Origin: a virus
Reading direction: 5' to 3' (one strand)
IMG/VR virus record: IMGVR_UViG_3300006188_000003
Length of the DNA stretch: 56,778 bases
Positions 37,220 to 53,814 of the stretch are shown here, piece by piece. A model generated the notes under the pieces. That model did no database searches. It was not told the DNA's origin and saw only the letters and a list, made by a program, of their open reading frames with translations. The translations under genes and the position numbers were made by a program. Position 1 is the first letter of the stretch, and every line of letters starts with the position of its first letter.

Positions 37220-38785
37220 ATGGATACCCTCGACATATACCGCGCCGGCAGCCTATTCGTAACCATCAAGCCGGACGACAGTTCCACCCAGACGAAAAAG
37301 GTCATGGGCGACAACACCCTACAGCTTACGTTTAAGGACTCCCGTAACATACAGTTCATGGTGAACGACTATTGTACGGTCTTCGGGGAGAAGTACCTGC
37401 TGAACAGCAGGCCGGTGGTCAAGAAGGATTCTTCCTACTATTGGGAATATTCCCTCAACATGGATGCGGACAGCCTGGAGCTGTCTAAGGCTCAGTTTCT
37501 TTTCCTGGGAGCGGACAATACGCTGAGAGAGTCGGATTTCTCACTGATGGGTACAGCCGATACCTTCATGGATCTACTGATCCAGAATGCCAATAGGGTA
37601 GGAGGCAGTTGGATAAAGGGTAATGTCGTCGGTACCGGGTACCACCACATGACATTCTCCGGTCAGAACTGTTACGAGGCGCTGGGCAAGTTGGCCACCG
37701 AATTCGATACTGAGTTCTGGATAGACGGTAGGACGGTGCATCTTTTTGACCGGGCCAGGGATACGGGCTATAGCTTCAGGCAGGGGAGAAATAAGGGGCT
37801 TTATGATATCACGCGCCTTCCCACGGATAACACCAGTATTGTTACCCGCCTGTATGCCTTTGGAGCAAATAAGAATTTGCCGGCATCTTACCGCAATTCC
37901 ACACCGCGGCTGCTGATGACCGAAGGCACCTACTACCTGGAGAAAAATGTTGACAAGTATGGCGTTATCGAGGCTACGCAGATCTTCGACGATATTTTCC
38001 CGACCCGGACGGGGAAGGTGACCGCTGTGGATGCGGCAAACGTCTTTCATTTCATTGACGCCACGATGGATTTTAACCTCAACGACTACCTGCTGCCGGG
38101 CCTCACGGCGAAAGTTACTTTCAACACCGGTCAGCTGGCCGGTTATACGTTCGAGATATCCGCCTATGACAATACCACAAAACAATTCACCATCCTGCAG
38201 AACAAGGACGAGACGGCCATTGCGGTCCCTTCTGCTGAGCTTAATCCGGGGATTGGGGATCAATACGTCCTGGTCGATATCACCCTGCCACAGATCTATA
38301 TCGACGCAGCAGAGGTGGCATTGAAAGCGAAGGCACAAGCAACGCTTGACCTCAATGCTGAACCGCAGGAGACCTATAAGATCACCTTCGACCCAGTATT
38401 CCTGAAGAAAAGGAACATTATTCCGGTCATCGGTGACCTGGTGTGGTTGTGGGACGGCGACCTGGACGTCGATCGAAAGATCCGCGTAACCGCGACGACC
38501 CGTGGCATCGTCAACGAGTGGGATCTGCAGGTGGATCTCTCCGACAAAGTAAGTCCAGGTATTATTAGCCGGATCACACAAGGGGTGGCCGACAATGCAG
38601 ATGGAATAGCTGCCGTGAACAATACTCTTCAGAACACGGCCATCCTCAACCGTCGGATCATCGGTGATCTCCGTATCGATCAGGGCACCATCATCCTTTT
38701 GACACTTCCCAGCACGGCCTCGATGGTGGGATTCACGGAGGTGGTCGTCGAAAATGCGACAGGCAGAGTATATAAGAAGATTTGA
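37220..38785 (+). CDS. Tail-associated / baseplate hub protein (Tal-like, prophage tail family)
   Basis: 521 aa. Called from position after Dit and the N-terminal pattern typical of siphovirus Tal proteins. Confidence 0.6.
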   Translation: MDTLDIYRAGSLFVTIKPDDSSTQTKKVMGDNTLQLTFKDSRNIQFMVNDYCTVFGEKYLLNSRPVVKKDSSYYWEYSLNMDADSLELSKAQFLFLGADNTLRESDFSLMGTADTFMDLLIQNANRVGGSWIKGNVVGTGYHHMTFSGQNCYEALGKLATEFDTEFWIDGRTVHLFDRARDTGYSFRQGRNKGLYDITRLPTDNTSIVTRLYAFGANKNLPASYRNSTPRLLMTEGTYYLEKNVDKYGVIEATQIFDDIFPTRTGKVTAVDAANVFHFIDATMDFNLNDYLLPGLTAKVTFNTGQLAGYTFEISAYDNTTKQFTILQNKDETAIAVPSAELNPGIGDQYVLVDITLPQIYIDAAEVALKAKAQATLDLNAEPQETYKITFDPVFLKKRNIIPVIGDLVWLWDGDLDVDRKIRVTATTRGIVNEWDLQVDLSDKVSPGIISRITQGVADNADGIAAVNNTLQNTAILNRRIIGDLRIDQGTIILLTLPSTASMVGFTEVVVENATGRVYKKI

Positions 38786-38864: not shown

Positions 38865-40220
38865 ATGGCCGATCTTGTAACAGTGCGCATCCATGATTTC
38901 CTGGAGAAATCAACAGACTTCAAGCCTGATGACGAATTCCTGTTATGGGACTCCGACATCGACAAGACCCGTAAGGCCAAATTTTCAAGCCTCAGATCCT
39001 TTATACTAAGTGACGGCGGTTCAACGATCGTACCAACCCAGTCAGGCGCCACAGTTATTTACGTGGTGGGGGCCGCAGATGCCGGCGGCAAAGTCGCCAG
39101 CATTCCCTCCCTTGCTGGACAGTTTTTCTCCCTCCGCCGGGGTGGCCAACCCATGATACCAGAGACTGATCCGGAAGCAGGTCCGGACGATCCTGGCTAT
39201 GGTGAGTTTGCCATCCTGGTCGGCGGAGGGTTCAAGCTCAAGGGAGCCGACGATGAGCTATACTTAAAGGAACGCTTTGAACTGACATTGGCTTCTGCGA
39301 CCGGTGGATCCTCTGGTGGCGGCAGTGGAGGCGGTGGAGCATCCTCCTTTATCAAAGGGGTAAAGCCGATATCCACCAATTTCACCCTTACCGTAGACCA
39401 TATCAATCTACTCATCCAGATCCGGTTGGGTGCTGTGGCGGCGGCACTGACCCTGCCCGATGTCACCAGTGTGCCGGGTGCCGTTATACCAGTCGAGGCG
39501 CTAATCAACAATAACACCAGCTGCAAAATCCTGACGCAAGGCGGTCAATACATCTATTTCCGGAATACCTCCATCAACAATGCATCTACCGTCGGCCTTT
39601 ACATCCTACCCGGTGAGCAAATCTGGTTCTATGCCGGGGAGGATGGCTGGTATGTGATCAATCCGCAAGGCAACTGGGGCCAAATAGGAAGACCATACGC
39701 CGCCTTTGACGTGGGGCTAAATGAAATATCACCTATCGGGCAGATTGTCCCGCGGACCGGCCTTTATGCGCGTCTTTGGGAGTTTGCAAATTCCCTGCCT
39801 TACAGCCTGGTCGATGATGCCGTCTGGCAGACAGCCAGTGTTGACTTGGGAGGCGGCAAAATCGTTTCTCGTCCATATCGCGGCTGCTTCTCCCGGGGAA
39901 CCGCTCCGGACAACTTCAGGCTCCCTGATTTTTCGGAGATGACGATAAAGGGCCTGGCCTCTGGTCCCGACCCTCTCCGCTATTTCAACCATCCAGGTGG
40001 GTTTCAAAAAGATATGGTGGGTTCATTCACTGCAGGTATCACCGGGAAAGGCGCCGGCGTGGCAGGAGGTAATGGCGGGACTACGAATGTGGTCGGACTG
40101 ACTTCTACCGTAGCGGGTCAGGCCAACCCTTCGGTACCTGTAGGTAATCTACAGGTCGATACGGGCAATACAAAGACGACGATCGAAAATCTTGGAATGT
40201 TTTGGGTTCTAAAATTATAA
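38865..40220 (+). CDS. Tail fibre protein with Gly-rich linker and C-terminal tail-collar-like domain
   Basis: GGSSGGGSGGGGASS linker. LYARLWEFANSL...FRLPDFSEMTIKG resembles the phage tail collar motif (YxxLF...FxLPDLRG). Confidence 0.65.
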   Translation: MADLVTVRIHDFLEKSTDFKPDDEFLLWDSDIDKTRKAKFSSLRSFILSDGGSTIVPTQSGATVIYVVGAADAGGKVASIPSLAGQFFSLRRGGQPMIPETDPEAGPDDPGYGEFAILVGGGFKLKGADDELYLKERFELTLASATGGSSGGGSGGGGASSFIKGVKPISTNFTLTVDHINLLIQIRLGAVAAALTLPDVTSVPGAVIPVEALINNNTSCKILTQGGQYIYFRNTSINNASTVGLYILPGEQIWFYAGEDGWYVINPQGNWGQIGRPYAAFDVGLNEISPIGQIVPRTGLYARLWEFANSLPYSLVDDAVWQTASVDLGGGKIVSRPYRGCFSRGTAPDNFRLPDFSEMTIKGLASGPDPLRYFNHPGGFQKDMVGSFTAGITGKGAGVAGGNGGTTNVVGLTSTVAGQANPSVPVGNLQVDTGNTKTTIENLGMFWVLKL

Positions 40221-40221
40221 T

Positions 40222-43200
40222 ATGAAACCTATTCAAAAAATACTTCTCCTTTTGTCCTGCTTTATTGCCGGGAGAGCGGCAGCGCAGGCGCCTCAAAACT
40301 GGCCTACCACCAACTATACGCCTACGGCCTATGATAAAACGAAGGCCCTGCGCATACTCGTGATTCCCACAGACACATTGATGCTGAATATTGCGGACAG
40401 CGGCGCCATTGCATATAAGAATGGGAACCAGTATGTCTGGACCGGCCACCTGTGGAAATTGAGTAGCGGGGGCGGCGGGTCCGCCGATAGCGGAATTTTA
40501 GCTACTAACTTCCGAGTGGATACCGCAAAAGCGGCCATTCGTGCCTCTGTAAAAGACATCAGCGATCAATTGGGAGGTTATTTCCCCTTCCCCGCCGGCA
40601 CGTCGGCGCAGTACGTGAAGGGTGATGGCAACCTCGCTACTATGGATACTACTGTGATCCCATCGTTTTCTTTCAAAGTCAGGTCTTTGATTCGCCAGAT
40701 CGATATCACGAATGCCCTTACCTATACGCCTTTGCGGCCCCTGGATACCGCCAACCTGAAGTATCGCATCGATACAATAGGTTCAAAGAGCTTTCGGTTT
40801 GCCAACGCGACGGTGGGGACCAAATTGCTGCGGAGTATCGATGACTCCACGGCACAGGTCAAAACCATTCAGCTTACACGGGGAACGGTCACGGACCGGG
40901 ATAGTACCATCGTCCTGGATATTCCTACGGGGACTTCCAACGTGCCAGCGGTGCAGATGCGCAATGAGAAGAAGGTAAAACTGTCCCTTCCCATTCGATA
41001 TGAAGGAAACAGTATCACGGCGTCTGCCGGTGCGACAGATACGGTACATGGTTACCCGGCATTATTATATGCACAGTACGGGGTGAGTTACGTCAACACT
41101 GCTGTCAGTAATTCCTCCGTCCGCGATGTCATTTCCCGGCAATTCAGCAACGCAGCAGCCACCAAGGTGAGTACGTCTTTGTCGATAATGATGGGTACCA
41201 ACAACCTGCGCCAGGATCCCCTGGGTACCAAACAACCAGCCGTCCGTGAGGCCCTGCGCGTTATCATCGCCAACCAGTTTGTCGACAGCATCTGGGCGAT
41301 CAGTAATGCGAAGTTTACGAAGAACGGATCCTGGTCCAATTTCACGGCATCGAACCTGACATCCAAAAGCGTGGCAAAGAGCTTGGGAAACCCCATGAAG
41401 AGCTCTACAGCGGGTAATACCCTGACATTCCTATGGACAGATGACAATATGATCATCGGAACGTACGCCTGGCAGGGATACCATAACCTCGGCAGGTTCT
41501 CGGTGACTGTCGACGGGATTAATAAGGGAACGTATTCAGGACGGGACCTTTGTTCTGACCATCAGAGCAACATCGGCACGTATGACTACCGTCAGCCTAT
41601 AGTCTTTATATTCACGGGGCTGGGGGCGGGGACGCACGCTGTTACCATCACGCTACTGGACAACGCGGAGACGGACTTTGATTATGTCGCTAAGTTCATG
41701 ACTGTGGATAACTGCTCGTCAGCCCTCGTTGCCCATATTACCAAATGTACCCCGGCTGGATATGTGGCCTATGGTGATACCAATTCCAGCGATGCTGTCA
41801 CCGATACGGCCAATGCCAACATCGATACGGTGGTGAACTATTTCCGCACCCTGGGCTTTCCTGTGGCCACCGTTCCAACAGAAAATTTTCTCAATATTAC
41901 CACTTCTGGTACGGGCGACGGGCTGCATCCCGGCAACGTGGGCTATGCGCAGCTGGCCAAAGCTTGGGCCTCTGTGATCGATTTCCCGAATAGCGGCGGC
42001 GCCTCACAGCTGGCGGCGCTGACCGACGTGGCCATTTCAACGCCACAGGAAAATGATATACTCACCCGAAATGGTACTGGTAAATGGGGGAACACACCGG
42101 GGCTGGTGGCCAACCTCTCTGCCCCAGAAGATGGGGACATCCTGGTCCGGGACGCCGGAATCTTTGTTAACAGGCCGGCTCTGATCGCCAACATTACGTC
42201 TCCAGCCGATGGAGATTTGCTTATAAAATTGGGTGCTGCCTGGGTAAATAAGCCCAGTGTCAATATCGACCTGACAGGCATAGCTGTCAACGATATCCCC
42301 ATTTGGAATGGGAGCAAGTTTGTGAAGTATACGCCGACATGGGGCGGAGGCGGTGGAAGTTATACATTCCCCAATAGCGTAAGGCAGGTCGCCGGTGTAG
42401 TCGACCTGATCGGTGATAGTTCTTCGCTGGTCGATTACAGAGTCTATGCATCCCAGAATGGTGTCCGCACATGGTATAAGGCTACAAAAATGAGTCTGAC
42501 GTCTCCAACTGATGGAGACATACTCTTTTATAGAGCTTCCGACACGACGTGGGTGAATCATCCTATCACAGGAGACTTCACCATCAGCACAGCTGGAGTC
42601 GGGGCCATAGGGTCTGGAAAAGTAACCAACGGGATGCTGGCCGGTAGCATCGCCGCTTCTAAACTGGTCGGTACCGACATTACCGCAGTAGGCACTATTA
42701 CAACTGGGACCTGGAATGCGACGGCAATAAGCACAAGCAAGGGCGGAGTGCCTACCGGGGGCACGGCAGGCCAGGTCCTGACGAAGAACACGAGCTCGAA
42801 CTACGACTACGCATGGGCGCCCCCTTCATCGGGCTTTGCCGATCCTATGACAACCATCGGTGATATTATTATCCGGAATGCCAGCAATGTGACCGCCCGG
42901 CTGGCTGGAAACACATCAACGGCCCTCCAGGTCCTGTCCTCCATAGGCTCCGGATCTGCAGCCACTGCTCCAACCTGGAGAGCCATAACTAAGAGTGATC
43001 TGAACCTTGGCAACGTCGAAAATACAGCTCTATCCACCTGGCCCGGTTCAGCCAATATTGTCACTGTCGGAACAATTGCTACAGGATCATGGAATGCAAC
43101 TGCGATTCCCATCTCCAAAGGCGGCACCGGGCTCACCGCTGTATTGAATGGAATGGTGAAAGGCAATGGTATGAACTACAGCGCGGCGACAGCCGGTACG

Positions 43201-43881
43201 GATTATTATGCGCCAGGCAGCACAGATGTGGCCGTAGGCGACGGTGGGACAGGCATTTCGTCCTATACCCTGGGAGACCTCCTATATGCATCCGGGACGA
43301 CGGCATTGTCAAAACTGGCCGGCAATACGACCACGACGAAGAAGTTCCTCAATCAGGCGGGTACCGGTTCCGTATCTGCAGCGCCTGCCTGGGCGGCCAT
43401 CACAGACGCCGATGTGGCCTTTTCGGATGTTACCACCGGCAATGCAAGCACGTCCGCACACGGGTACATGAAAAAGCTGCCTGGAGATGCCACGCTTGTG
43501 TATGGAGGAGATGGCAATTTTTCGACCGTCGTTACCTCGAGTACCTATACTCCTACTATTTCCAATCTAACGAACTGTACTGCCAGCGGCAATTTATCCC
43601 ATTGGCTTAGGATAGGCAATGAAGTAACTGTATGGGGAACAATCAACCCTTTGGCTACATCAATTGGCGAATGTTATCTGGAAATCAGTCTGCCGGTCGC
43701 ATCCAACCTGACAAACTCACTAGACTGCGTAGGTGGCTCGAATATCGAAAATAATGGGCCTTTTACGGGAGGCGGAATAACTGCAAATAACACGACAGAC
43801 ATGGCACGGCTACACTTTACCGCGCCCAGCACAACATCATCGACCACTCTTAACTACTCTTTTACCTACACAATAAAATAA
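40222..43881 (+). CDS. Signal-peptide-bearing fibre-like protein with an SGNH/GDSL hydrolase domain
   Basis: MKPIQKILLLLSCFIAGRAAA/QAP signal. SGNH blocks GNSIT (about 41005), GTNN and DGLHP (about 41915). Downstream are DGD(I/L)L and TG(T/S)WNATAI..SKGG fibre repeats. Confidence 0.75.
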   Translation: MKPIQKILLLLSCFIAGRAAAQAPQNWPTTNYTPTAYDKTKALRILVIPTDTLMLNIADSGAIAYKNGNQYVWTGHLWKLSSGGGGSADSGILATNFRVDTAKAAIRASVKDISDQLGGYFPFPAGTSAQYVKGDGNLATMDTTVIPSFSFKVRSLIRQIDITNALTYTPLRPLDTANLKYRIDTIGSKSFRFANATVGTKLLRSIDDSTAQVKTIQLTRGTVTDRDSTIVLDIPTGTSNVPAVQMRNEKKVKLSLPIRYEGNSITASAGATDTVHGYPALLYAQYGVSYVNTAVSNSSVRDVISRQFSNAAATKVSTSLSIMMGTNNLRQDPLGTKQPAVREALRVIIANQFVDSIWAISNAKFTKNGSWSNFTASNLTSKSVAKSLGNPMKSSTAGNTLTFLWTDDNMIIGTYAWQGYHNLGRFSVTVDGINKGTYSGRDLCSDHQSNIGTYDYRQPIVFIFTGLGAGTHAVTITLLDNAETDFDYVAKFMTVDNCSSALVAHITKCTPAGYVAYGDTNSSDAVTDTANANIDTVVNYFRTLGFPVATVPTENFLNITTSGTGDGLHPGNVGYAQLAKAWASVIDFPNSGGASQLAALTDVAISTPQENDILTRNGTGKWGNTPGLVANLSAPEDGDILVRDAGIFVNRPALIANITSPADGDLLIKLGAAWVNKPSVNIDLTGIAVNDIPIWNGSKFVKYTPTWGGGGGSYTFPNSVRQVAGVVDLIGDSSSLVDYRVYASQNGVRTWYKATKMSLTSPTDGDILFYRASDTTWVNHPITGDFTISTAGVGAIGSGKVTNGMLAGSIAASKLVGTDITAVGTITTGTWNATAISTSKGGVPTGGTAGQVLTKNTSSNYDYAWAPPSSGFADPMTTIGDIIIRNASNVTARLAGNTSTALQVLSSIGSGSAATAPTWRAITKSDLNLGNVENTALSTWPGSANIVTVGTIATGSWNATAIPISKGGTGLTAVLNGMVKGNGMNYSAATAGTDYYAPGSTDVAVGDGGTGISSYTLGDLLYASGTTALSKLAGNTTTTKKFLNQAGTGSVSAAPAWAAITDADVAFSDVTTGNASTSAHGYMKKLPGDATLVYGGDGNFSTVVTSSTYTPTISNLTNCTASGNLSHWLRIGNEVTVWGTINPLATSIGECYLEISLPVASNLTNSLDCVGGSNIENNGPFTGGGITANNTTDMARLHFTAPSTTSSTTLNYSFTYTIK

Positions 43882-43886
43882 GGTTC

Positions 43887-44888
43887 ATGAAAAGACATCT
43901 TTTAATTATAGCCCTCCTTTTGCCCTGCTTCCTGCAGGCCCAGACCTATGTATTCGGAGTGAATATTGGAAGCACCGGTGGGACAGGACCAACGATTACC
44001 CGCACTCCATCCACACTGTCAGGATTTTCCACAACGCTGGGTACTGCAAGCACCGGCCAATCATCGAGCATTTCAGGTACCAACCTCACGGCGGACATTG
44101 TTTGTAATGCTACGACGAACTATGAGGTATCCCTTTCCTTGGCCAGCGGATATACTTCGAGCGTAACCTTGACACAGTCCGGCGGTACCGTCTCTCCGAC
44201 AAACGTCTATTGGCGTTTAAAGTCATCCGCTACTGCGGGGCACCATAATGAAGTTGCCAACCTTACGAGCACAGGTGCGACAACAAAGACAGTCACTCTG
44301 GACGGGGACGTTCTCACCACACCGGATACGGTTCGCATTCAGATGGATACAACTGTCGCCTTTGACGTATCGCCTTTCCTTGTACTGAGGGGAGACCCCG
44401 GCAAGCATACCATAACTGCATCGCTTTCAGGCACGACCATTTCAGCCACCACAGGTCCGACGTCGAACTGGACGTTCTTCGCCGGCGCGTGTATCGGTCC
44501 ATCCAATGGCATAACGAACGCCACCATACCGACGGGCTACACAGGTGTCATGCGAGAAGGGTTTGTCCAGGGAGCCACCTATCAGACAACCAATCCACAG
44601 ATAACGTTGAACGGGCTGCTTCCCAATACCAGCTATACAGTCAAGCTTTCAGGCACGACCCAGTATAACGTCGCTGCCAAAGGGAACTATAACGTTAAGG
44701 GTACCACTTTGCAAACCGTTCAGACCCTTGCAAACTACAACGGATCGCCCAACACATCTACCGAGCTGAGTTTCCCTGGTGTGGTGTCGGATTCCAATGG
44801 CACTATTGTAATCTATGTTGGTAAAACCAACACAACTGGCGGAACGGACTGCGCCCTCATTTCTTACGCAATCTTCATAAAAGAATAA
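43887..44888 (+). CDS. Secreted protein, Ser/Thr-rich, unknown function
   Basis: MKRHLLIIALLLPCFLQA/QTY signal peptide with Gln at +1. 333 aa. Confidence 0.7.
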   Translation: MKRHLLIIALLLPCFLQAQTYVFGVNIGSTGGTGPTITRTPSTLSGFSTTLGTASTGQSSSISGTNLTADIVCNATTNYEVSLSLASGYTSSVTLTQSGGTVSPTNVYWRLKSSATAGHHNEVANLTSTGATTKTVTLDGDVLTTPDTVRIQMDTTVAFDVSPFLVLRGDPGKHTITASLSGTTISATTGPTSNWTFFAGACIGPSNGITNATIPTGYTGVMREGFVQGATYQTTNPQITLNGLLPNTSYTVKLSGTTQYNVAAKGNYNVKGTTLQTVQTLANYNGSPNTSTELSFPGVVSDSNGTIVIYVGKTNTTGGTDCALISYAIFIKE

Positions 44889-47671
44889 TGAGAAAGTTAT
44901 TTACCATTCTCGCCCTGCTGCCGCTCTTAGCAGTCGGACAATCAGAGACCCACAACTTCGTCACCTACGACACTGTTATTAATTTCACAACCGGGCCATT
45001 TTCTGCCGATCACTGGAATGTTAGAATCTCTCGACCAGCTAAGATGTTTGTAACCAATGATCCGGACACTGCTTCCAGACCTGCCATTATTATGATGCCT
45101 GGACAAGGGGAGCAAGGTACATCGGATACCAATAAATTAGTGGCATATGGGCCCCATTACTGGTTAAACCACGGGTGGGACGGCGGGTTGCAATTGGGCA
45201 ATGGTAAACACTATCCCATTCTTATTACGGCGGCCTATATCAACAATGTCTCTCCCACAGCCCCTCAGTATTACACGTTGCTTACCTACCTGTTAAATAC
45301 CTATCACATCAAACGTAACGCGGTACATTTTACGGGTCTATCTCAGGGGGCCATGACGACGGGGGAGCTTATCAAATTTGAAATGACGGCAGGGGCTGAA
45401 ACGGGTATGAAGCTGGTAACTTCCTTTGCTGCTCTGGAGGGTACACCAGGGGCATTGCCTTCTCCATATAACGGGTGGGATAGAGACACTGTTGCGTACA
45501 AGGTTTGGGCAAAGAAATATGGCGGCAAGTACTTCTACCTGGAAGGCAGCGGGTCTGACAATTTCCGCGACGGCTGGCACTACTCAGTAGCAATGAATGA
45601 CACCCTGCCAGGCTGCGCCTATTTTAGTTATGAGAATCTGGGCGGGGGAGCACACTGCTGCTGGAATAGTATGTATGATCCGAACGCAACCAACTGGACC
45701 TGCGTAGGCACGTTAGGGCCAAACAATGCGCCCTCGCAGGTGGGGAAAAATACGATGGGTACGTATTTCGCCCAATCCAGCATCTTTCAATGGATGCTAC
45801 GGCAGGGGGATACCAGTTTAGTAGGTGTCGCAACGCCTTCTCCCCGGGTTGTAAAAAAGGTCGTGGTATCAGAATACAGGACTTGGTATTATTTGTCTGA
45901 CAGCACGATATGGGGTTATAATAATTCCAGCGCTTATCCGGTGCAGTACGCTCCGCCGTCTGGGCGGAAATGGTGCTTTGTATTTGGTGGCTTTAACATC
46001 TTCAATGCACTTGATGATCTGGGTTATGTCTGGCAAACAAAGGCTTTTAATTTCGACATCACCACCAACACCTACAGGGTCGACACAGACACAACTGGAG
46101 GGGCATTCAGCGGTAACATTTACGTCGACGGGTACAGCAATGCCATTTTAACAATCCGATCGGATTCATCAATCTGGTATGGCGGGAAAGACGTCTATAG
46201 CCTGTTTTATCCTGGCGGCTCAACTGTGACCAGTGTGGGCCAGGTCATGAAGTTCACCCAACTTTCCCCGGCTGGATTGAAATTTAAGAAGGTGGTATGC
46301 GGCGGTCCTGGCATCCTGGCTCTGACGACGGACGGTAAGGTATACAAATGGTCGAACGGTGGGAGTAAGACCCCAACCTTATACTCTACACCCAGGCCAG
46401 CCATTGATATTTTTATCTCCGCCCTCAACCTACAAGGCTGCATTATTCCCGATGTCTTCGGTTCACAGACAATGGGTTACCCATATGTTTGGGGTGGTAC
46501 CACCAGCATGTATGGCGGAGGTCCGGCATATTCACAGCCAACTTCAATTAAGGCCCTTTGGAACATCACAGTTCCCATAAAGGAGATCTCGGTGGATTGG
46601 AATACCATTCACTATATAGATAGTCTTGGCAGAATGTGGGGTTGCGGCTTTAACTCTTTTGGGGAAGTAGGCAACGGGCAGGAGTTCGTTAATAAATACT
46701 ATTATCCTGGCTATCCGGGATATGGCTGGTCGCTTATCAATTACGAGAATCCGTCTGGTATACCCGTGCAGATAAAGCCAGGTACGCTGTTTAAGCATAT
46801 TTGGTCTACCACCTGGTTCGGCCTGTACAAGTATGCGCAGGATCTCAACGACAGTATCTATTCATGGGGGCGCAACAAAGCCTTGGCGCTGGGTAACGGG
46901 TATGGAAGTACCAGCGAAACAGATCAGTATCATCCGAATACGCTTGATGTTTTGGTCCCAAAGAGGGTAACACCTCTGACAGCCCGATTTACTACCTATA
47001 ACTTTACGGCTCCCACTCTCTCGGCTGGGGCGAATAAGACGATAACATCTACCTCAACAACATTGACAGCTACGGGCAATCCTGCCCTTGTAATATCACA
47101 GATACGCCCAGCTCCAAACGGTGTAGATACGGTCGGTTATTGGTGGATATCCTATGCCTGGACTAAGGTCAGCGGGCCGAACAATCCGACAATCGTCTCG
47201 CCTTCCTCTAAGAGCACGTCTGTCACGGGGATGGTTAATGGCACATATGTCTTCCAGGTCCTGGCTACGGATAACAATACCGGCCAGGATACTTCCCAAG
47301 TGCAGGTCATTGTCAACCAGGCAGGCGTACCGCCAACCGTTTATGCCGGCATTAACCAGTCAACGACCCTCCCTAAAGACTCAGCCACGCTTACCGGGAC
47401 GGCTTCCGGTAATAGCGGCGCCACGATCACGTCCACCAGCTGGAGCCAGGTGAGCGGCCCGAACACCGCCACGATCCGGACACCCAGCTCCTTGTCCACG
47501 GTAGTGGCCGGCCTGATCGCCGGTACCTATACCTTCAAGCTGACGGCGACGGATAGCAACAGCCAAACAGCCAACGATACGGTCACGGTCACAGTGTCCC
47601 AGCCGCAACCGACCGTTATCGAGGTGCACATACGCAAGGGGACCAATGTCCTCATCATCACCGACAATTGA
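44888..47671 (+). CDS. Secreted multidomain protein: alpha/beta-hydrolase (esterase-like), RCC1-like repeats and two PKD/Ig-like domains
   Basis: MRKLFTILALLPLLAVG/QSE signal. GxSxG elbow FTGLSQGAM. RCC1-like GFNSFGEVGNGQ and WGRNKALALGNGYG. Two VSGPN...GTY.F.L.ATD modules. Confidence 0.75.
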   Translation: MRKLFTILALLPLLAVGQSETHNFVTYDTVINFTTGPFSADHWNVRISRPAKMFVTNDPDTASRPAIIMMPGQGEQGTSDTNKLVAYGPHYWLNHGWDGGLQLGNGKHYPILITAAYINNVSPTAPQYYTLLTYLLNTYHIKRNAVHFTGLSQGAMTTGELIKFEMTAGAETGMKLVTSFAALEGTPGALPSPYNGWDRDTVAYKVWAKKYGGKYFYLEGSGSDNFRDGWHYSVAMNDTLPGCAYFSYENLGGGAHCCWNSMYDPNATNWTCVGTLGPNNAPSQVGKNTMGTYFAQSSIFQWMLRQGDTSLVGVATPSPRVVKKVVVSEYRTWYYLSDSTIWGYNNSSAYPVQYAPPSGRKWCFVFGGFNIFNALDDLGYVWQTKAFNFDITTNTYRVDTDTTGGAFSGNIYVDGYSNAILTIRSDSSIWYGGKDVYSLFYPGGSTVTSVGQVMKFTQLSPAGLKFKKVVCGGPGILALTTDGKVYKWSNGGSKTPTLYSTPRPAIDIFISALNLQGCIIPDVFGSQTMGYPYVWGGTTSMYGGGPAYSQPTSIKALWNITVPIKEISVDWNTIHYIDSLGRMWGCGFNSFGEVGNGQEFVNKYYYPGYPGYGWSLINYENPSGIPVQIKPGTLFKHIWSTTWFGLYKYAQDLNDSIYSWGRNKALALGNGYGSTSETDQYHPNTLDVLVPKRVTPLTARFTTYNFTAPTLSAGANKTITSTSTTLTATGNPALVISQIRPAPNGVDTVGYWWISYAWTKVSGPNNPTIVSPSSKSTSVTGMVNGTYVFQVLATDNNTGQDTSQVQVIVNQAGVPPTVYAGINQSTTLPKDSATLTGTASGNSGATITSTSWSQVSGPNTATIRTPSSLSTVVAGLIAGTYTFKLTATDSNSQTANDTVTVTVSQPQPTVIEVHIRKGTNVLIITDN

Positions 47672-47696
47672 TTTTTTAACCAATACACACTACAAA

Positions 47697-48008
47697 ATGA
47701 AAAAAACAAAACTGCTCATCATCGCCCTGCTGGCCACCATGGCCTCCTATGCTCAAGCAAAAAGGGACTCCGCGGAGAAACGCCTTATCCTGAACCTGTC
47801 CGAGCTGGAGGTTGCGCAGCTGCAGGCGCAGCTCGACAATGCGAAGTATTTGACCGACAATTCGAACCTGGCCCATCAAAAGGCCAAAGCTATCATGGAT
47901 ATATGCGATGAGCTCCAGGCAAAGATCGAAGCTACGAAGCGACAGCAATGGCCCCTCGACCTTCCGAAAAACAAGGCCGATACCTCCAAAGCAACACCCA
48001 AAAAATAA
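47697..48008 (+). CDS. Small secreted coiled-coil protein
   Basis: ATG 47697: MKKTKLLIIALLATMASYA/QAK signal with Gln at +1. Confidence 0.6.
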   Translation: MKKTKLLIIALLATMASYAQAKRDSAEKRLILNLSELEVAQLQAQLDNAKYLTDNSNLAHQKAKAIMDICDELQAKIEATKRQQWPLDLPKNKADTSKATPKK

Positions 48009-48018
48009 GCAATTACCC

Positions 48019-48309
48019 ATGCCTGAAAGCACTGATATCCAGCAGCTCAAAGAGCAAGTCCGCGACTTAACCGACAAGGTATGCGATGTTCACTATGCGC
48101 TTATTGGCAATAGTCTCGCCAAGGATGGCGGCCTCATCCAGCGTGTAATAGACTGCGAGAAAGAAGCAGAGACGCTACACGAAAGGATCGATCGAATCGA
48201 GCGTAAGAACATCAAGGCAGAGCTGTACATCAAATGGATATGGGGACTAGGCGGCACAGTGGTAATGGCCATATTCCTGGAAATTCTTCATTACGCATTT
48301 AAAAAATAG
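48019..48309 (+). CDS. Coiled-coil protein with a C-terminal TM anchor (lysis-cassette component)
   Basis: ATG 48019. C-terminal segment WIWGLGGTVVMAIFLEILHYAF. Confidence 0.55.
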   Translation: MPESTDIQQLKEQVRDLTDKVCDVHYALIGNSLAKDGGLIQRVIDCEKEAETLHERIDRIERKNIKAELYIKWIWGLGGTVVMAIFLEILHYAFKK

Positions 48310-48316
48310 TCATTAT

Positions 48317-48652
48317 ATGGAACTCCTCGACTTCTTCAAAGACAAATTCAACATCGACCTAGTTATTGTCCTGTTGGTACTGGGTGCGGGTTTTTTCCAA
48401 AAGAGGTATCTATATACCCCCTGGAATAGGACAAGTAAATCACATGATTCAGCGATCAAGACCTTGGCGCTCTCATCCATTGCAAGCACGATCTATGTGC
48501 TTCTCCTGCACTTACAGGATAAGACAGCGCCTATTGCGTGGGTGCAGTCCTTCGTAAGCTACTTCTTCGCTACCAGCTTCTATGAATTGCTGCTACAACC
48601 AGTTTTGAAGTGGTGGACCAGGATGGCCGGCAACAAAGATCCTCAATCATAA
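48317..48652 (+). CDS. Multi-pass small membrane protein, holin candidate
   Basis: 111 aa with about three hydrophobic helices and a charged C-terminus. Confidence 0.55.
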   Translation: MELLDFFKDKFNIDLVIVLLVLGAGFFQKRYLYTPWNRTSKSHDSAIKTLALSSIASTIYVLLLHLQDKTAPIAWVQSFVSYFFATSFYELLLQPVLKWWTRMAGNKDPQS

Positions 48653-48662
48653 CCCATTCATC

Positions 48663-49355
48663 ATGAAACTACTCATCCCCCTCATTTTCTTACTGGCCAG
48701 CTGCGGCGCCTCGCATAAGCTCAAACAAAGTCAGCAGAGGACGGCAGATAGTACGGCAACTGTCAGCCGGGACACGGATCATGTCACCAGGGAGGTGAAT
48801 CATAGCAGCAATATCGAGGTGCAGGACGTGCATGTAAAGATCAGCTACAAGCCGCTCGATTCGGCAATGGCGGCTTATATCCGGAGCCTGTATACCCAAT
48901 GGCCGGTTTCCAGTGGCGACAGTGAACAGACATCGTCAGCAGGTAGCATTGCCCGAGAGCAAAATATCGCTGGGAAAGCAAGTCCGGGCACAAAAACAAC
49001 GACAGCGCCGGCATCAGCAATTACCGACATCGCTCGTGCCGTACAGAAAGCAATCTCCGCTACCAGCCTACCAGGTCAAATCCCTGCGGAAGTCGAGATT
49101 GATATTGGGAGAATAAACAGCGGCACAACATTCAACGAGAAGGTGGATAGCACAGCAGGCCACGACGCCGCTCAAACGGATCTACACACGACGGAGGAGT
49201 CGAAGAGCAAGGAGGTCGCCCATGAGGGAATGCCTGGTTTGGTCCAGATGAGTCTTTGGCTCCTGCTTATTCTCGCCATCATCGGGATTATTTGCACCTG
49301 GTTAAAGAAACCGGTGATCATAAAAAACATTATTAAAAAACTTTTAAATATCTGA
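48663..49355 (+). CDS. Lipoprotein with a C-terminal TM helix (unimolecular-spanin-like topology)
   Basis: Lipobox LLASC at the N-terminus. C-terminal LVQMSLWLLLILAIIGIICTWL. Lies in the lysis cassette. Confidence 0.6.
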   Translation: MKLLIPLIFLLASCGASHKLKQSQQRTADSTATVSRDTDHVTREVNHSSNIEVQDVHVKISYKPLDSAMAAYIRSLYTQWPVSSGDSEQTSSAGSIAREQNIAGKASPGTKTTTAPASAITDIARAVQKAISATSLPGQIPAEVEIDIGRINSGTTFNEKVDSTAGHDAAQTDLHTTEESKSKEVAHEGMPGLVQMSLWLLLILAIIGIICTWLKKPVIIKNIIKKLLNI

Positions 49356-49357
49356 TT

Positions 49358-49894
49358 ATGAAAATTTTCAAGTCCAGATGGGGCTTGATGCTCATCGTCG
49401 CGATTCTTTTCACCGCCTGTGGGCAGCACTATAACACAGAGCCGGATGGGAGGTATCCCGAGCTACGCGGCAAATTTAGGCCGGTCACGGATAGCTTGCT
49501 ACAATTGGAGCGTGCTGGATACACCCACATTGACCGCACTGTTGATGGCAATCCCCTTATCCAGGATTATTGGCTGCGTTTCGAGGCTACCTGGTGGCAG
49601 GCAAAGGAATGGGCTGAGGAGGACCACACATACAAATGGTTCTGGCTACTGGCGTTCCTGGGACCCGCAGCGGGCATAGGTGCGGGTAAAGCGGTAACGA
49701 TGAAGCGACCCGCTCAATGGTGGATGCCTTTATTGGTATTTATTGTATGGGCGGTCATTTGGGTTGGCGCCTATTGTGTCCTGGATAGTAAACGATGGCG
49801 GACCCACCTGGAGGTCAAACAGATCACCTTTGACAGTGTCATGAAAGCAGATCAAACTCCGGCTGTTCTCTGGAAAAATGTCGTACCGTTATGA
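49358..49894 (+). CDS. Lipoprotein-signal membrane protein
   Basis: MKIFKSRWGLMLIVAILFTAC lipobox plus two internal hydrophobic helices. Confidence 0.6.
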   Translation: MKIFKSRWGLMLIVAILFTACGQHYNTEPDGRYPELRGKFRPVTDSLLQLERAGYTHIDRTVDGNPLIQDYWLRFEATWWQAKEWAEEDHTYKWFWLLAFLGPAAGIGAGKAVTMKRPAQWWMPLLVFIVWAVIWVGAYCVLDSKRWRTHLEVKQITFDSVMKADQTPAVLWKNVVPL

Positions 49895-50325
49895 TCTACG
49901 TCTTCCAGGCATATTATATCATCTGCACGCTTGTCCTGGCAGGCAAGGACGCTGATAGCTACCAGCTGAAGGATAAGAATGACAATGCGCTGTCTGCCGT
50001 GCGCGTAAGACGCTGGCACCGCGATGGTCTGATCCTGGCTGTGCTCTTTTTGTTGCCCTTGCTGAAGATGCAGCCAATATTTAACCTGCAGCCTGCTGCC
50101 TGGTGGAAAACTTGTCTTGCCTGCGGATTGATCCGGCTGGTGTTCTTCGATATTCCCTTCAACCATTGGTCTTCCTTGTCCATCTACTACCTGGGTGGGA
50201 CGGCATGGGTAGACCGGCAGCTCGTAAAGCTCTTCGGCCAGCAGGGGGCCATCAGGAAGACGATCATCTTCTTCCTTATTCTTATTGCTTCTAACCTATT
50301 AAATCAGTTTTATGGCAGATTTTGA
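49891..50325 (+). CDS. Multi-pass membrane protein (holin-like) immediately upstream of the endolysin
   Basis: 144 aa with four hydrophobic segments. Overlaps both neighbours. Confidence 0.55.
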   Translation: MIYVFQAYYIICTLVLAGKDADSYQLKDKNDNALSAVRVRRWHRDGLILAVLFLLPLLKMQPIFNLQPAAWWKTCLACGLIRLVFFDIPFNHWSSLSIYYLGGTAWVDRQLVKLFGQQGAIRKTIIFFLILIASNLLNQFYGRF

Positions 50326-50890
50326 AATAGCTTATAAAGCCACCATCCGCGTAGAACGAGGATATGCTAATAATCCCAACGACACTGGAGGAGAGACATA
50401 TGGCGGCGTTTCTCGCAACAACTGGCCACAATGGAGTGGCTGGAAGATCATTGACGAATTGAAAGGCAAGCCCGGCTTTGGGGCTGCACTTCAGGCCAAC
50501 AAGGACCTCCAGGCTGCAATGAGGGGCTTCTACCAGGTCAACTTCTGGGATGTTCTCAGGCTCAACCAGGTGCAGGACCAGCCGATAGCGAACGAGCTGT
50601 TCGACCTTGCTGTTAACTGCAGCTCCAAGATCGCTGCGCTGTTTCTTCAACGCTCTCTCAACGTGCTCAACAAGCAGGGGAAATTCTATCCTGATATTGT
50701 TGTCGATGGTGTTGTCGGTGCTGGGACGCTGAATGCCCTGGCTAAGGCAAATCAAAAGGACGTGCTCAAATGTATCGTCGCCCTGCAGGGCGCTCGGTAT
50801 ATAGGAATAGCGGAGAACAGGGCGAGCCAGGAAGAGTTCATGGCCGGCTGGATCCGCAGGGCATTTGGACAATTTTCTTTAACCGCATAG
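50312..50890 (+). CDS. Endolysin, GH108 lysozyme domain with a PG_binding_3 domain
   Basis: VERGYANNPNDTGGETYGGV matches the GH108 EGGYxNDPxDxGGxT signature. C-terminal DGVVGAGTLNAL...FMAGWIRR. Confidence 0.8.
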   Translation: MADFEIAYKATIRVERGYANNPNDTGGETYGGVSRNNWPQWSGWKIIDELKGKPGFGAALQANKDLQAAMRGFYQVNFWDVLRLNQVQDQPIANELFDLAVNCSSKIAALFLQRSLNVLNKQGKFYPDIVVDGVVGAGTLNALAKANQKDVLKCIVALQGARYIGIAENRASQEEFMAGWIRRAFGQFSLTA

Positions 50891-50893
50891 CCT

Positions 50894-51403
50894 ATGATTG
50901 CTATTCTTATCCTCGTGGTTGGCATCGGTTTTTACCTCCAGGTGATCCAGGACCGCCGGATATCGACGGGGCCGCGTCAACGCCTCACATTCACCCTTTT
51001 TGTTAACTATATAACTTTTGACGGAATGAAAAAACAAGTTTTGAAAAGCCAGTTTGTCGATGACGGCAATGGCAATTTAGTAGTGACTGGAAAGATCAGT
51101 CCAGTTAATGCCAAGGGAGCGCCGGTGGACCTGGATACAACAGGAACGCTCAGCTATTCTTCCTCCGACGAAAACGTAGCCATGATCGGGCTTACCAGTT
51201 TTAGGACGTTCGCGATCAAATGGGTCGGACCTGGCTCTGTTATACTCACGGGCAACGGCAAATCCCTTTCCGGAAAAGATGTACCAGGTATTCTGCAGCT
51301 GGTATTGGTCGATGACTCTAATGCAGGCGGAGGCGATGTCGATACAGAGGCCGTAGATCTCGGCATGCAGCTGGACGTAGCTACTACCGATGTAGCGGAA
51401 TAA
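50894..51403 (+). CDS. Membrane-anchored protein with an Ig-like (Big_2-like) domain; start uncertain
   Basis: N-terminal TM MIAILILVVGIGFYL. An alternative internal start is MKKQVLKS. Confidence 0.5.
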   Translation: MIAILILVVGIGFYLQVIQDRRISTGPRQRLTFTLFVNYITFDGMKKQVLKSQFVDDGNGNLVVTGKISPVNAKGAPVDLDTTGTLSYSSSDENVAMIGLTSFRTFAIKWVGPGSVILTGNGKSLSGKDVPGILQLVLVDDSNAGGGDVDTEAVDLGMQLDVATTDVAE

Positions 51404-51784: not shown

Positions 51785-51831
51785 CTTTTTCCGCACAGTC
51801 GCGGAGTTTTCTCATAAGCAGTTAGTTTTGG

Positions 51832-51865
51832 GCCCGGGGTGTGTCTACACCCGGGGCTTTTATTT
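51832..51865 (+). terminator. Intrinsic terminator
   Basis: GC-rich bulged hairpin GCCCGGGGTGT / ACACCCGGGGC with a 4-nt loop, followed by TTTTATTTG. Confidence 0.6.
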
Positions 51866-51908
51866 GAGGGAACAAGCAATATATCTTTCAAATAAAATAG
51901 CCAAGACC

Positions 51909-52709: not shown

Positions 52710-52720
52710 CATCCCTATGT

Positions 52721-52738: not shown

Positions 52739-52742
52739 GCAT

Positions 52743-53801: not shown

Positions 53802-53814
53802 GTAGCGCTTGGAA

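Follow-up and report, generated by a model that had tools for sequence, protein, structure and literature searches.

Four consecutive late genes of a Chitinophagaceae prophage, g1 to g4, encode proteins whose N termini look like functional Bacteroidota-type signal peptides, that is, Sec and signal peptidase I (SPase I) substrates predicted to be cleaved before Gln. On balance, we consider the four products to be Sec-exported, periplasm-matured, and lysis-released glycan esterases or binders: receptor-modifying, depolymerase-type proteins. Because the export signals appear genuine and recur in related phages, phages of this group probably use the periplasm, not the cytoplasm, to mature host-surface enzymes.

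A run of signal-peptide genes in the late operon

The stretch of DNA analyzed (56,778 nucleotides; hereafter, the window) derives from an integrated prophage, with integrase, of a Chitinophagaceae bacterium and lies within an 884-kb scaffold. All features described here are on its plus strand unless stated. The exported block extends from 40222 to 48008 (7787 bp, 13.7% of the window), matching the earlier note's 7.8 kb and ∼14% of the element. The N termini are exactly as quoted there: MKPIQKILLLLSCFIAGRAAA/QAP for g1, MKRHLLIIALLLPCFLQA/QTY for g2, MRKLFTILALLPLLAVG/QSE for g3, and MKKTKLLIIALLATMASYA/QAK for g4. Each begins with an n-region carrying two or three Lys/Arg residues, followed by an uncharged, hydrophobic core 11 to 13 residues long. 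At the predicted cleavage site, residue −1 is small, as is residue −3 apart from the Leu of g2, and +1 is Gln; the proposed Bacteroidota Q-rule signature therefore holds.

Signal-peptide calls were based on explicit rules, conservation, and a sequon statistic. Among window genes, the rule-based caller was positive for g1 (residues 1 to 21, 40222..40284, cleavage AAA/Q), g2 (residues 1 to 18, 43887-43940), g3 (residues 1 to 17, 44888-44938), and g4 (residues 1 to 19, 47697-47753, cleavage SYA/Q), the last only from its start at 47697; elsewhere in the window it flagged only a pair of lipobox proteins in the lysis block and a spurious open reading frame (ORF) on the minus strand. Likewise, only genes in 40222-51403 had a Kyte-Doolittle 10-residue maximum of >2.9 near the N terminus. 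Two lysis-block lipoproteins aside, g1 to g4 alone among ∼70 genes have Gln+1 signal peptides; by our own arithmetic, four signal-peptide genes among ∼70 would be consecutive by chance with a probability of ∼67/C(70,4), roughly 7e-5.

The block belongs to the late operon and is not moron-like. From g0, the gene upstream, through the lysis genes, which follow the tape measure gene (TMP) in this operon, spacing is 1 to 25 nt, and gaps between the exported block and the adjoining lysis block (48019..50890; membrane proteins, two lipobox proteins, and a GH108 endolysin) are ≤10 nt, or the genes overlap. GC content of g1 to g4 equals that of neighboring genes; we found no Bacteroidota-type promoter for them, and they have no terminator of their own, the single strong terminator lying at 52717-52742. 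Nearly all products encoded from 40222 to 51403 are predicted to be exported or membrane bound, the endolysin excepted.

The block is placed where receptor-binding proteins are expected. Immediately upstream lies g0 (38865..40220; 451 amino acids [aa]), a fiber/receptor-binding candidate outside the exported block. Its sole phage match by tblastn comes from Pseudanabaena phage Pan5, with the annotation "receptor-binding domain of short tail fiber protein," and a homolog, L011_338, occupies the equivalent position in phage locus L011. The rule-based caller and hydropathy analysis revealed neither a signal peptide nor a hydrophobic N terminus in g0. Pfam detected no Collar domain in it.

Predicted functions of the exported proteins

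g1 (40222..43881; 1219 aa) is a predicted SGNH O-acyl esterase on a true tail-fiber shaft. Directly after the cleavage site, alignment delimits a domain of ∼90 aa (40285..40560) with invariant D-T and W; a profile built from 15 such N-domains matched only residues ∼20 to 115 of signal-peptide proteins. The SGNH/GDSL esterase domain follows (residues ∼255 to 585, 40984..41976; Pfam Lipase_GDSL_2, E=2e-8), and across 17 homologs its catalytic residues Ser264, Asn327, and Asp566-x-x-His569 never vary, with Gly325 almost as constant (≥90%). Repeats read in the sequence define the shaft (residues ∼590 to 1100, 41989..43521), of which residues ∼750 to 1100 are homologous by phmmer to repeats of many signal-peptide-less tail fibers, with matches in phage contigs spanning GC 39 to 65%. 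The C-terminal domain of ∼120 aa (43522..43881) matched neither the NCBIfam models nor our custom profile for the C-terminal domain (CTD) of type IX secretion system (T9SS) cargo. Signal peptides are also present on g1 homologs P0001, P0002, and about 15 others; among the SGNH-matching relatives, all but one carry such a peptide.

g2 (43887..44888; 333 aa) has an Ig-like domain (residues 33 to 143) modeled confidently by AF2, the remainder being modeled poorly; Foldseek matches, with low TM scores, were to Ig plus carbohydrate-binding module (CBM) arrangements of glycosidases. Homologs of g2 stand upstream of g3 in loci L001, L009, and L011, and one, P0100, is fused to a g3 esterase domain. 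We propose that g2 is a carbohydrate-binding-like partner translationally coupled to g3.

g3 (44888..47671; 927 aa) is a predicted α/β-hydrolase esterase with conserved catalytic residues and a confidently modeled esterase fold (residues 18 to 315, 44939..45832; AF2 pLDDT 92), whose Foldseek matches are carboxylesterases and ferulic acid esterases. G150-L151-S152 (of the GxSxG motif) and H256 are invariant and D238 is nearly so; a vicinal cysteine pair, C257-C258, occurs in 42-43 of 49 sequences. Next come an RCC1-like β-propeller (residues ∼325 to 705, 45860..47002; Pfam WD40_RLD/RCC1, PDB sequence matches UVR8 and HERC2) and two K319L-like PKD domains (residues ∼725 to 903, 47060..47596; Pfam E=1.3e-33, PDB KIAA0319L). 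In place of a T9SS CTD, g3 ends in a short basic tail (47597..47671) that the CTD profile did not match. The C-terminal pattern h-x-h-[PR]-[RK]-G-x-[RK]-h-x-h recurs in phage-type g3 homologs, and their basic tail could be a sorting or docking signal of a new kind.

For g4 (47697..48008), a small helical protein, translation likely starts at the internal ATG at 47697 (103 aa) and not at 47646, where the ORF opens; the former start is also used in public gene annotations of this sequence. g4 had no family match and no homolog in the other loci.

The same arrangement in other phages

Comparison with related phages, proposed in the earlier note, revealed at least eight further phage loci (L001, L004, L005, L007, L008, L009, L011, and L012, plus L065) in which consecutive signal-peptide/Gln+1 proteins are likewise encoded between the tail-tip and lysis genes, so the exported block appears to be a property of a phage group beyond this element. 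These loci include sipho-, myo-, and podo-like morphotypes and share 30 to 46% protein identity. The signal-peptide genes are always the last structural genes ahead of the holin-like genes, and in all morphotypes the first signal-peptide protein takes the tail-fiber slot behind baseplate/tail-tip genes. The n-h-c layout, small −3/−1 residues, and Gln+1 are found in roughly 20 phage proteins; signal peptides change faster than mature parts (for example, g3 versus P0004, overall identity 76%), yet layout and Gln are kept. The central domains are exchanged from phage to phage (SGNH, β-helix "Phage_tail_beta," and endosialidase-N-like). Related Bacteroidota siphophages sharing the Tal protein have long Tal-receptor-binding protein fusions and no signal-peptide genes.

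Relationship to host secreted proteins

Both g2 and g3 have chromosomal Chitinophagaceae homologs that are T9SS cargo. In named genomes, 42 of 42 loci of the g3 family are of Chitinophagaceae type (Puia, Flavitalea, Chitinophaga, Flavisolibacter, or Terrimonas, or unnamed Chitinophagaceae/Chitinophagales/Bacteroidetes metagenome-assembled genomes [MAGs]). About 34 of the 42 have a callable g3 homolog, most with signal peptide and T9SS CTD, and none of these ∼34 has phage neighbors. Cargo of esterase-RCC1 propeller-PKD(-CBM6)-CTD architecture (e.g., P0007 and P0009; Puia, Flavitalea) is 55 to 56% identical to g3 over 97% of its length and shares its signal-peptide junction, esterase triad, propeller, and PKD domains; the junction, G/Q-SETHxFxTYDT, is conserved in about 100 homologs. 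Whereas such cargo is chromosomal and ends in a Por_Secre_tail CTD, as do bacterial g2 homologs in having a T9SS CTD, the phage copies lie in late operons, keep the signal peptide, and lack the CTD: no NCBIfam CTD model matched them, nor did our custom profile (1e-12 on a control) match any phage C terminus. A lipobox is absent from g1 to g4. Apparent descent of g2 and g3 from host T9SS cargo families supports export. It also qualifies the earlier description of the exported proteins as fiber-like, which fits g1, with its fiber-homologous shaft, but not g2 and g3, CTD-less kin of host secreted carbohydrate-active proteins.

O-glycosylation sequons

The Bacteroidota general O-glycosylation motif, D-S/T-A/I/L/V/M/T, is used on noncytoplasmic proteins only (PMC12871550, PMC8550257). 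Signal-peptide proteins, totaling 16,722 aa, contain 203 D-[ST]-[AILMTV] sequons, or 2.8x shuffle expectation, whereas phage proteins lacking a signal peptide, totaling 35,075 aa, contain 102, or 0.95x (Fisher p=1.4e-34, with counts from homologous proteins, so that events are not independent). Five control motifs occur at 0.7 to 1.2x expectation. g1 has 12 sequons versus 6.7 expected, and g0 has 0 versus 1.5; enrichment is likewise absent from Tal, TMP, and capsid proteins. Several sequon positions are conserved across homologs. The phage exported proteins carry the motif more than do host exported proteins (1.65x). We found no report of a phage protein as a Bacteroidota O-glycosylation substrate, and an O-glycosylation review does not mention phages. 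Virion glycosylation in mycobacteriophages uses phage-encoded cytoplasmic glycosyltransferases.

Possible roles of the exported block

Export is backed by three independent lines of sequence evidence: conserved loci, T9SS-cargo descent of g2 and g3, and sequon enrichment. We propose that g1 to g4, late products of the operon that also holds the tail and lysis genes, would pass in unfolded form into the periplasm of an infected Chitinophagaceae host, where the signal peptide would be removed before Gln, Gln would become pyroglutamate according to the Q-rule, and the host general glycosylation system may O-glycosylate D-S/T-hydrophobic sequons. Because they lack a T9SS CTD and a lipobox, the known sorting signals, the proteins would be retained in the periplasm until the downstream holin-endolysin-spanin block bursts the cell and frees them along with virions. 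Outside, g1 and g3, with their partner g2, may act on host surface glycans; such action would make them receptor-modifying, depolymerase-type proteins matured in a secretory compartment, not the cytoplasm. After lysis, g1 might dock on the tail tip via its post-signal-peptide N-domain or work as a free enzyme; we know of no tailed phage that adds fibers made in another compartment. Periplasmic maturation (pyroglutamate and O-glycans) is a likely reason for export.

It is possible, though rather doubtful, that the proteins are exported but never virion borne and have no extracellular action, with the esterases removing O-acyl substituents from peptidoglycan or nascent surface polysaccharide in the periplasm; the dying cell and its debris would then stop adsorbing phage (receptor destruction or superinfection exclusion), or the GH108 muramidase and spanins would be aided. 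The shared operon with the adjoining lysis cassette, the run of almost exclusively exported or membrane-bound products, and the periplasm as default location fit this role; moreover, g2 and g3 derive from host enzymes and have no recognizable virion-docking domain, and with g0 as a signal-peptide-less receptor-binding candidate, the virion is not obviously in need of g1 to g3. T5 Llp shields progeny from receptor on debris. In the periplasm, peptidoglycan is de-O-acetylated by SGNH esterases such as Ape1, and a lysis-accessory role would fit that activity. The envelope remodeling at lysis suggested in the earlier note is a possible role as well. However, about 500 aa of genuine fiber shaft plus a distal knob would be pointless in a periplasmic g1, the first signal-peptide protein holds the fiber slot in all morphotypes, domain swapping is expected of host-range determinants, and a sequon density exceeding the one in host exported proteins is suggestive of a long extracellular life.

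That the hydrophobic N termini are not cleaved export signals, but a helix for assembly or anchoring of proteins folded in the cytoplasm, or that export fails late in infection, is very improbable. Tailed phages as a rule assemble in the cytoplasm, and the position and homology of g1 match ordinary tail fibers; even so, another function for these N termini is unlikely because of the Q+1 and sequon signatures, the former in canonical n-h-c context in roughly 20 phage proteins and the latter specific to signal-peptide proteins. Identical junctions occur in bacterial T9SS cargo, which must use Sec, and Sec is required at the same time by the spanin lipoproteins that this operon encodes. It is also improbable that lysogenic-conversion enzymes, expressed from the prophage and sent to the surface to alter lysogen glycans, are encoded here. 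The element is an integrated prophage with integrase, and exported proteins encoded near phage tail genes have precedents (lambda Lom/Bor). Q-rule signal-peptide genes of Porphyromonas gingivalis prophages have been read likewise, as modifiers of the host outer membrane and a sign of adaptation to host secretion (PMC10367356). Nevertheless, this was the least supported of the three readings in the earlier note: tight late-operon packing, uniform GC, and lack of promoter and terminator argue against it, as do the missing CTD and lipobox, with no other known outer-membrane route, protein size and fiber architecture atypical of morons, and occurrence of the block in contigs without integrase in the fetched stretch and in podo-/myo-like genomes.

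Relationship to known systems

We found no published description of such an exported fiber/esterase block in phages. Tailed phages have SGNH-esterase tailspikes and fibers, e.g., gp63.1 of phage G7C, an O-antigen deacetylase. Like these, g1 has an esterase embedded in a fiber-like protein encoded after baseplate/tail-tip genes; unlike g1 and nearly all its SGNH relatives, those known to us lack a signal peptide and are assembled cytoplasmically. Exported phage proteins in or near tail or lysis modules include lambda Lom/Bor, T5 Llp, spanins, and SAR endolysins, which also use host Sec (and Lol), some late in infection. To our knowledge, they are small membrane proteins, lipoproteins, or lysis enzymes, whereas g1 and g3 are 900- to 1200-aa proteins of fiber/depolymerase type.

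In the Bacteroidota SPase I substrates that follow the Q-rule, a glutaminyl cyclase facing the periplasm cyclizes the Gln at +1 (Bochtler et al. 2018, PMC5837995; PMC10653852); g1 to g4 resemble these substrates in signal-peptide layout, and differ in being phage late genes at the tail-fiber position with processing predicted from sequence. The P. gingivalis "Nixviridae" prophages also encode predicted SPase I substrates with Gln+1, reportedly scattered and of unknown function (Matrishin et al. 2023, PMC10367356). In phage005b, the one P. gingivalis phage inspected, no gene between Tal and holin encodes a signal peptide. Here, in contrast, the genes form a contiguous 7.8-kb block encoding large, sequon-enriched enzyme/fiber proteins, conserved across morphotypes.

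Signal peptides of g1-g4

Four consecutive genes, g1 (40222-43881; 1,219 aa), g2 (43887-44888; 333 aa), g3 (44888-47671; 927 aa), and g4 (47697-48008; 103 aa), encode proteins with predicted Sec signal peptides. The four N-termini that the earlier note quoted as signal peptides with Gln at +1, in the position expected of receptor-binding proteins (RBPs), are present exactly as written there; the g4 start is probably the ATG at 47697, which matches public gene calls. All four have a positively charged n-region, an uncharged hydrophobic h-region within the usual ∼8 to 15 residues, and small residues at −3 and −1 (the g2 −3 residue is Leu, tolerated if less common). Gln occupies +1 in all four, and in ∼22 of ∼25 signal-peptide proteins over nine phage loci as identified by a rule-based caller (charged n-region, uncharged hydrophobic core of at least 8 residues, small −3/−1 residues, lipobox) that itself favors Gln at this position; the four window cleavage sites were read directly from the sequence.

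Among the ∼70 genes of the window, strongly hydrophobic N-termini are confined to 40222-51403. Caller positives were g1 to g3, g4 at an internal start, two lysis-block lipobox proteins, and one spurious antisense ORF; the probability of four such genes being adjacent by chance is ∼7e-5. No lipobox Cys stands at +1 of g1-g4, and the only lipoboxes are those of 48663-49355 and 49358-49894. Conservation, ancestry, and the glycosylation-motif signature described below suggest that the signal peptides of g1-g4 are functional, with cleavage and N-terminal pyroglutamate (pyroGlu) formation (at Q22, Q19, and Q18 of g1, g2, and g3) as predicted consequences.

Prophage organization and the late operon

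The window is a siphovirus-type prophage; an identical sequence lies within an 884-kb metagenome scaffold and in many other assemblies, with more than 20 public assemblies containing the prophage. Genes for the large terminase (20547), portal (22642; followed by scaffold), major head protein (28320), tape measure protein (TMP; 32505-36650), distal tail protein (Dit; 36661), and a short Tal-type tail-tip protein (37220-38785) are followed by g0 (38865-40220), which encodes a 451-aa fibre or receptor-binding candidate without a signal peptide. The late gene order is TMP-Dit-Tal-g0-g1, then g2-g4, a lysis block, and a D12 methyltransferase gene; a tyrosine integrase is encoded on the minus strand (55365-56657).

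Nearly all products of the lysis block (48019-51403) are membrane bound or exported: a tail-anchored XhlA/'hemolysin'-like protein (48019-48309; 96 aa), a holin candidate with multiple transmembrane (TM) segments (48317-48652; 111 aa), a 230-aa unimolecular-spanin-like protein with a lipobox (LLAS/C) and a C-terminal TM helix (48663-49355), a 178-aa lipoprotein with TM segments (49358-49894), a 144-aa TM protein (49891-50325), an endolysin (GH108 plus PG_binding_3; 50312-50890), and a 169-aa protein with an N-terminal TM helix (50894-51403).

Intergenic distances between g0 and the lysis genes range from −14 to 25 nt, and the GC content of the exported block (0.51 to 0.53) is that of its neighbors. 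We found no Bacteroidota-type promoter motif (TTG-N17-23-TAnnTTTG) in 30-53 kb, and terminator-like hairpins there were at shuffle level, the only strong one (11-bp stem) being at 52717-52742. Because the gaps are tight, no promoter or terminator of its own is evident, and GC content is uniform, the exported block belongs to the late operon and is not a moron with its own regulatory signals and deviating composition.

The D12-class N6-adenine DNA methyltransferase gene (51723-52742), with that terminator behind it, ends the late operon; a homologue occupies the same place in L011, a related phage contig. A tRNA-Cys (GCA) gene lies near the left end (3382-3450); a search for an att site detected no repeat of this gene or its flank on the far side of the integrase, at the right end. 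GC content is 0.41 to 0.45 at both ends (1-2000 and 52000-56778) versus 0.49 to 0.55 in the phage core, and the right-hand low-GC part includes the genes for HTH regulators and the integrase. The head-morphogenesis (SPP1 gp7-like) protein (24520-25584) also matches the PHROG family 'Bxa ADP-ribosyl transferase' over residues 196-343 (E=1.7e-68), probably because the two have a gp7-like region in common and not because of a toxin domain. A stretch of ∼1.3 kb (25600-26950) that separates the head-morphogenesis gene from the scaffold gene lacks a long plus-strand ORF; Rfam gave only the tRNA in the window and nothing in this interval.

The exported block in other phages

Only two word-index homologues of g1 (P0001 and P0002) were found among 5.8 billion proteins. 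P0002 is encoded on a 56-kb phage contig (L001), where it and the proteins of the following genes begin with MKK...A/Q signal peptides and where the signal-peptide genes include homologues of g2 (32% identical) and g3 (38%, full length). P0001 was first read without a signal peptide, but its true start lies 25 codons upstream and encodes MYRPLKAHLLLVLTILLCAGATA/QS. Further contigs were reached via phage-type g3 homologues: L004 has myovirus-like baseplate genes, L005 has an SU10-type capsid and is podovirus-like, and L008 to L012 come from IMG/VR. In each of these, the last three to five structural genes before the holin-like genes encode signal peptides with Gln+1, and the baseplate, tail, and head genes upstream of the exported block encode none. 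g1 occupies the slot behind the baseplate or tail tip in the late operon, the same slot as in the myo- and podo-like loci; the signal-peptide sequences diverge with their properties kept (for example, g3 versus P0004). The comparison with related phages that the earlier note proposed thus revealed the same exported arrangement in sipho-, myo-, and podo-like loci.

In contrast, cultured siphophages of Bacteroidota with the same Tal protein, including P. gingivalis phage005b and Elizabethkingia TCUEAP3, have Tal fused to an RBP in one long protein, and none of the genes downstream encodes a signal peptide; the exported block therefore marks a particular phage group. Neither g1 nor g3 had a tblastn match in INPHARED (50,697 phage records), a search for isolated relatives with P0146 gave trivial matches only, and an IMG/VR scan with an alignment of the SGNH-type fibres returned a single locus already in our set. 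L001 also encodes, just upstream of its tail-tip genes, a 5,299-aa giant tape-measure-like or polyvalent protein (1-7806).

Domains of the exported proteins

g1 consists of a signal peptide, a ∼90-aa domain, an SGNH esterase (Pfam PF13472, above cutoff), ∼500 aa of tail-fibre repeats, and a terminal knob. The SGNH/GDSL blocks I, II, III, and V are represented: across 17 homologues, S264, N327, and D566-x-x-H569 are invariant, and G325 is nearly so (at least 90%). In an exhaustive phmmer search the repeats proved common to thousands of proteins, many of them classic tail fibres without signal peptides on phage contigs of 39 to 65% GC, with the fibre-module match covering g1 residues ∼750-1100; relatives that match in the SGNH domain nearly all have a signal peptide and Gln+1. 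Tail fibres are expected to be made and assembled in the cytoplasm without an export signal, whereas all four of g1-g4 carry predicted signal peptides.

The ∼90-aa domain behind the signal peptide (40285-40560), which contains an invariant Asp-Thr, mostly within a glycosylation motif, and an invariant Trp, recurs across sipho-, myo-, and podo-like genomes, where each phage has it in the signal-peptide protein that is encoded first and is the largest (residues ∼20-115 in L001_1221, L005_816, L008_941, L009_1400, P0155, P0170, P0281, and others). Its profile matched directly behind signal peptides only and in no protein lacking one; an earlier g1 N-domain profile was built from three sequences whose alignment was too poor for use. 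We dropped the idea that either of two signal-peptide-less proteins, P0169 and L001_165, shares this domain and could serve as a Rosetta stone: the BLAST link was weak and the domain profile negative. We also looked for a common docking partner encoded immediately before the first signal-peptide protein, but the genes at that position fall into at least three unrelated families and so lend no support to a specific partner.

The N-terminal domain of g3 was modeled by AF2 as an alpha/beta-hydrolase (pLDDT 92), nearest to carboxyl- and feruloyl-esterases (Foldseek probability 1.0). The predicted fold, a conserved G150-x-S152-x-G154 elbow (GLS(152)xG), and a conserved His256 are those of a putative carboxylesterase whose acid residue has no certain assignment; vicinal Cys257-Cys258 are also conserved, and comparison with viral structures gave generic alpha/beta-hydrolases only. 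Behind this domain come an RCC1-like propeller and two PKD domains of the K319L type. In the full-length g2 model, only an Ig-like domain is confident; the rest is a poorly modeled beta-sandwich resembling carbohydrate-binding modules (CBMs), and Foldseek matches were generic Ig and CBM. g2 overlaps the g3 start by one base (44888), and a natural fusion of a g3-type esterase domain to a g2-type C-terminal domain (P0100; 567 aa) supports a functional link between the two. g4 is predicted to be a small helical exported protein and has no detectable relatives. None of g2 to g4 matched PHROG or tail-fibre families.

Relation to host T9SS cargo

Homologues of g3 number in the hundreds, nearly all of which start with a signal peptide that leads into the conserved junction G/Q-SETHxFxTYDT, and they form two classes. 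The first comprises long chromosomal Chitinophagaceae proteins ending in a type A C-terminal sorting domain (CTD) of type IX secretion (T9SS); one of these, P0007 (56% identity, covering 97% of g3), is encoded next to cytochrome, two-component, and other T9SS cargo genes. The second comprises proteins of ∼800 to 1,000 aa, encoded on phage contigs, that lack a CTD. A scan of one genome per species yielded 42 g3 loci, all in Puia, Flavitalea, Chitinophaga, Flavisolibacter, Terrimonas, or unnamed Chitinophagaceae/Chitinophagales/Bacteroidetes MAGs; ∼34 of the 42 have a callable homologue, most with signal peptide and CTD, and no phage neighbors were found at these chromosomal loci. g2 also has bacterial homologues bearing a CTD.

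Like T9SS cargo, g1-g3 have an N-terminal Sec signal peptide, but we rejected their identity as cargo because neither a type A (Por_Secre_tail/TIGR04183) nor a type B CTD was detected with NCBIfam, Pfam, or a custom profile. The latter, built from 54 CTDs, detected a positive control at 1e-12 but matched the C-terminus of none of g1-g3 and none of the phage-type homologues. As judged from these searches, the phage proteins keep the signal for entry to the periplasm and have consistently lost that for exit across the outer membrane. Where the chromosomal paralogues have the CTD, phage-type g3 ends in a short, basic, hairpin-like tail (47597-47671), whose pattern, h-x-h-[PR]-[RK]-G-x-[RK]-h-x-h, recurs in P0027, P0047, P0057, P0068, L011_965, and others; the tail may serve as a docking strand or as a signal for sorting.

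O-glycosylation sequons

Bacteroidota O-glycosylate noncytoplasmic proteins at D-S/T-(A/I/L/V/M/T) sequons; transfer is periplasmic, and engineered motifs are used (PMC12871550, PMC8550257). g3 has 11 sequons versus 3 expected from its composition (P<0.0005), and g1 has 12 versus 6.7; the 16 cytoplasmic head and tail proteins of the window have 17 in 5,605 aa, and g0 has none. Over the nine phage loci, proteins with a signal peptide and Gln+1 contain 203 sequons in 16,722 residues, 2.8 times the shuffle expectation, whereas those without a signal peptide contain 102 in 35,075 residues (0.95 times); the two sets differ at P=1.4e-34 (Fisher test), although homologues within a set do not count as independent. 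Five control motifs (Glu or Asn for Asp, a non-hydrophobic third residue, the reversed motif, and Ala/Gly for Ser/Thr) occurred at 0.7 to 1.2 times expectation in both sets. Not only the g3 family but also unrelated fibre-type proteins show the excess, several positions are conserved between homologues, and exported proteins of the host show a 1.65-fold excess. Being predicted to leave the cytoplasm and carrying sequons, these proteins are candidate O-glycoproteins with putative sites such as D28-T29, D60-T61, and D238-T239 of g3. Despite the non-independence, such specificity is hard to explain unless the proteins meet the periplasmic glycosylation machinery.

Possible roles

Lysogenic conversion, one of three explanations offered in the earlier note, is unlikely because the block belongs to the late operon and its proteins lack any known route to the cell surface. 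In the mechanism that we propose, g1-g4 would be exported by Sec late in infection, simultaneously with the spanin-type lipoproteins of the same operon, cleaved before Gln, cyclized, and glycosylated; they would then be stored in the periplasm and released by lysis, whereupon the esterase and glycan-binding domains could act on acylated glycans of the host surface. Plausibly, the periplasmic detour arose because the modules were derived from, or exchanged with, the host secretome; it may also confer pyroGlu and glycan protection for extracellular life.

Whether g1 then joins the virion is a question on which the evidence divides. Its fibre slot in three morphotypes, fibre homology, conserved N-domain, and RBP-like domain shuffling favor docking on the tail tip; the compartment mismatch, the presence of g0 as an RBP candidate without a signal peptide, and the lack of a conserved upstream partner fit a free enzyme, as which g1 may work instead. 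On balance we consider docking less likely than not. We are similarly hesitant about a broader proposal, of which we are more doubtful than convinced: that a group of Chitinophagaceae phages has two-compartment virions, with heads and tails made in the cytoplasm and distal fibre or depolymerase proteins that are exported by Sec, pyroGlu capped, O-glycosylated by the host in the periplasm, and attached to the tail tip, via the conserved domain behind the signal peptide, only at lysis. Such assembly, if true, would give host-glycosylated RBPs.

Tailed-phage morphogenesis is taught as wholly cytoplasmic, and signal peptides commonly serve to separate bacterial surface proteins from phage structural proteins. 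If g1-g4 are processed as predicted, this would be, to our knowledge, the first phage use of host periplasmic maturation (SPase I, glutaminyl cyclase, and general O-glycosylation) for host-recognition enzymes. It would raise the question of whether fibres join the virion after lysis, and document exchange between phages and the T9SS cargo of their hosts in which the sorting domain is consistently lost. Signal peptide, Gln+1, and sequon excess would then form a simple signature for finding such proteins, which pipelines that discard signal-peptide proteins from RBP or depolymerase searches would miss in Bacteroidota phages; a DGR study, for example, separates bacterial surface from phage structural proteins by signal peptides (PMC6199706). 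The Q-rule is already known (PMC5837995), and Q-rule signal-peptide genes of unknown function have been noted in P. gingivalis prophages (PMC10367356). In the literature, we found no report of tail-fibre homologues bearing signal peptides, of an exported block conserved at the RBP position, or of O-glycosylation sequon enrichment in phage proteins. Here a whole set of phages, whose bacterial family is one of soil and wastewater, has canonical, host-adapted export signals on fibre- and depolymerase-type proteins that are also enriched in the host glycosylation motif.

Fibre-repeat proteins with a signal peptide and Gln+1 are also encoded on two other IMG/VR contigs of GC 0.53 to 0.56 (L065, 502-5217; L069, 7206-9209), where they adjoin small lipoproteins and membrane proteins; given these, the exported-fibre trait may extend beyond the loci studied here.
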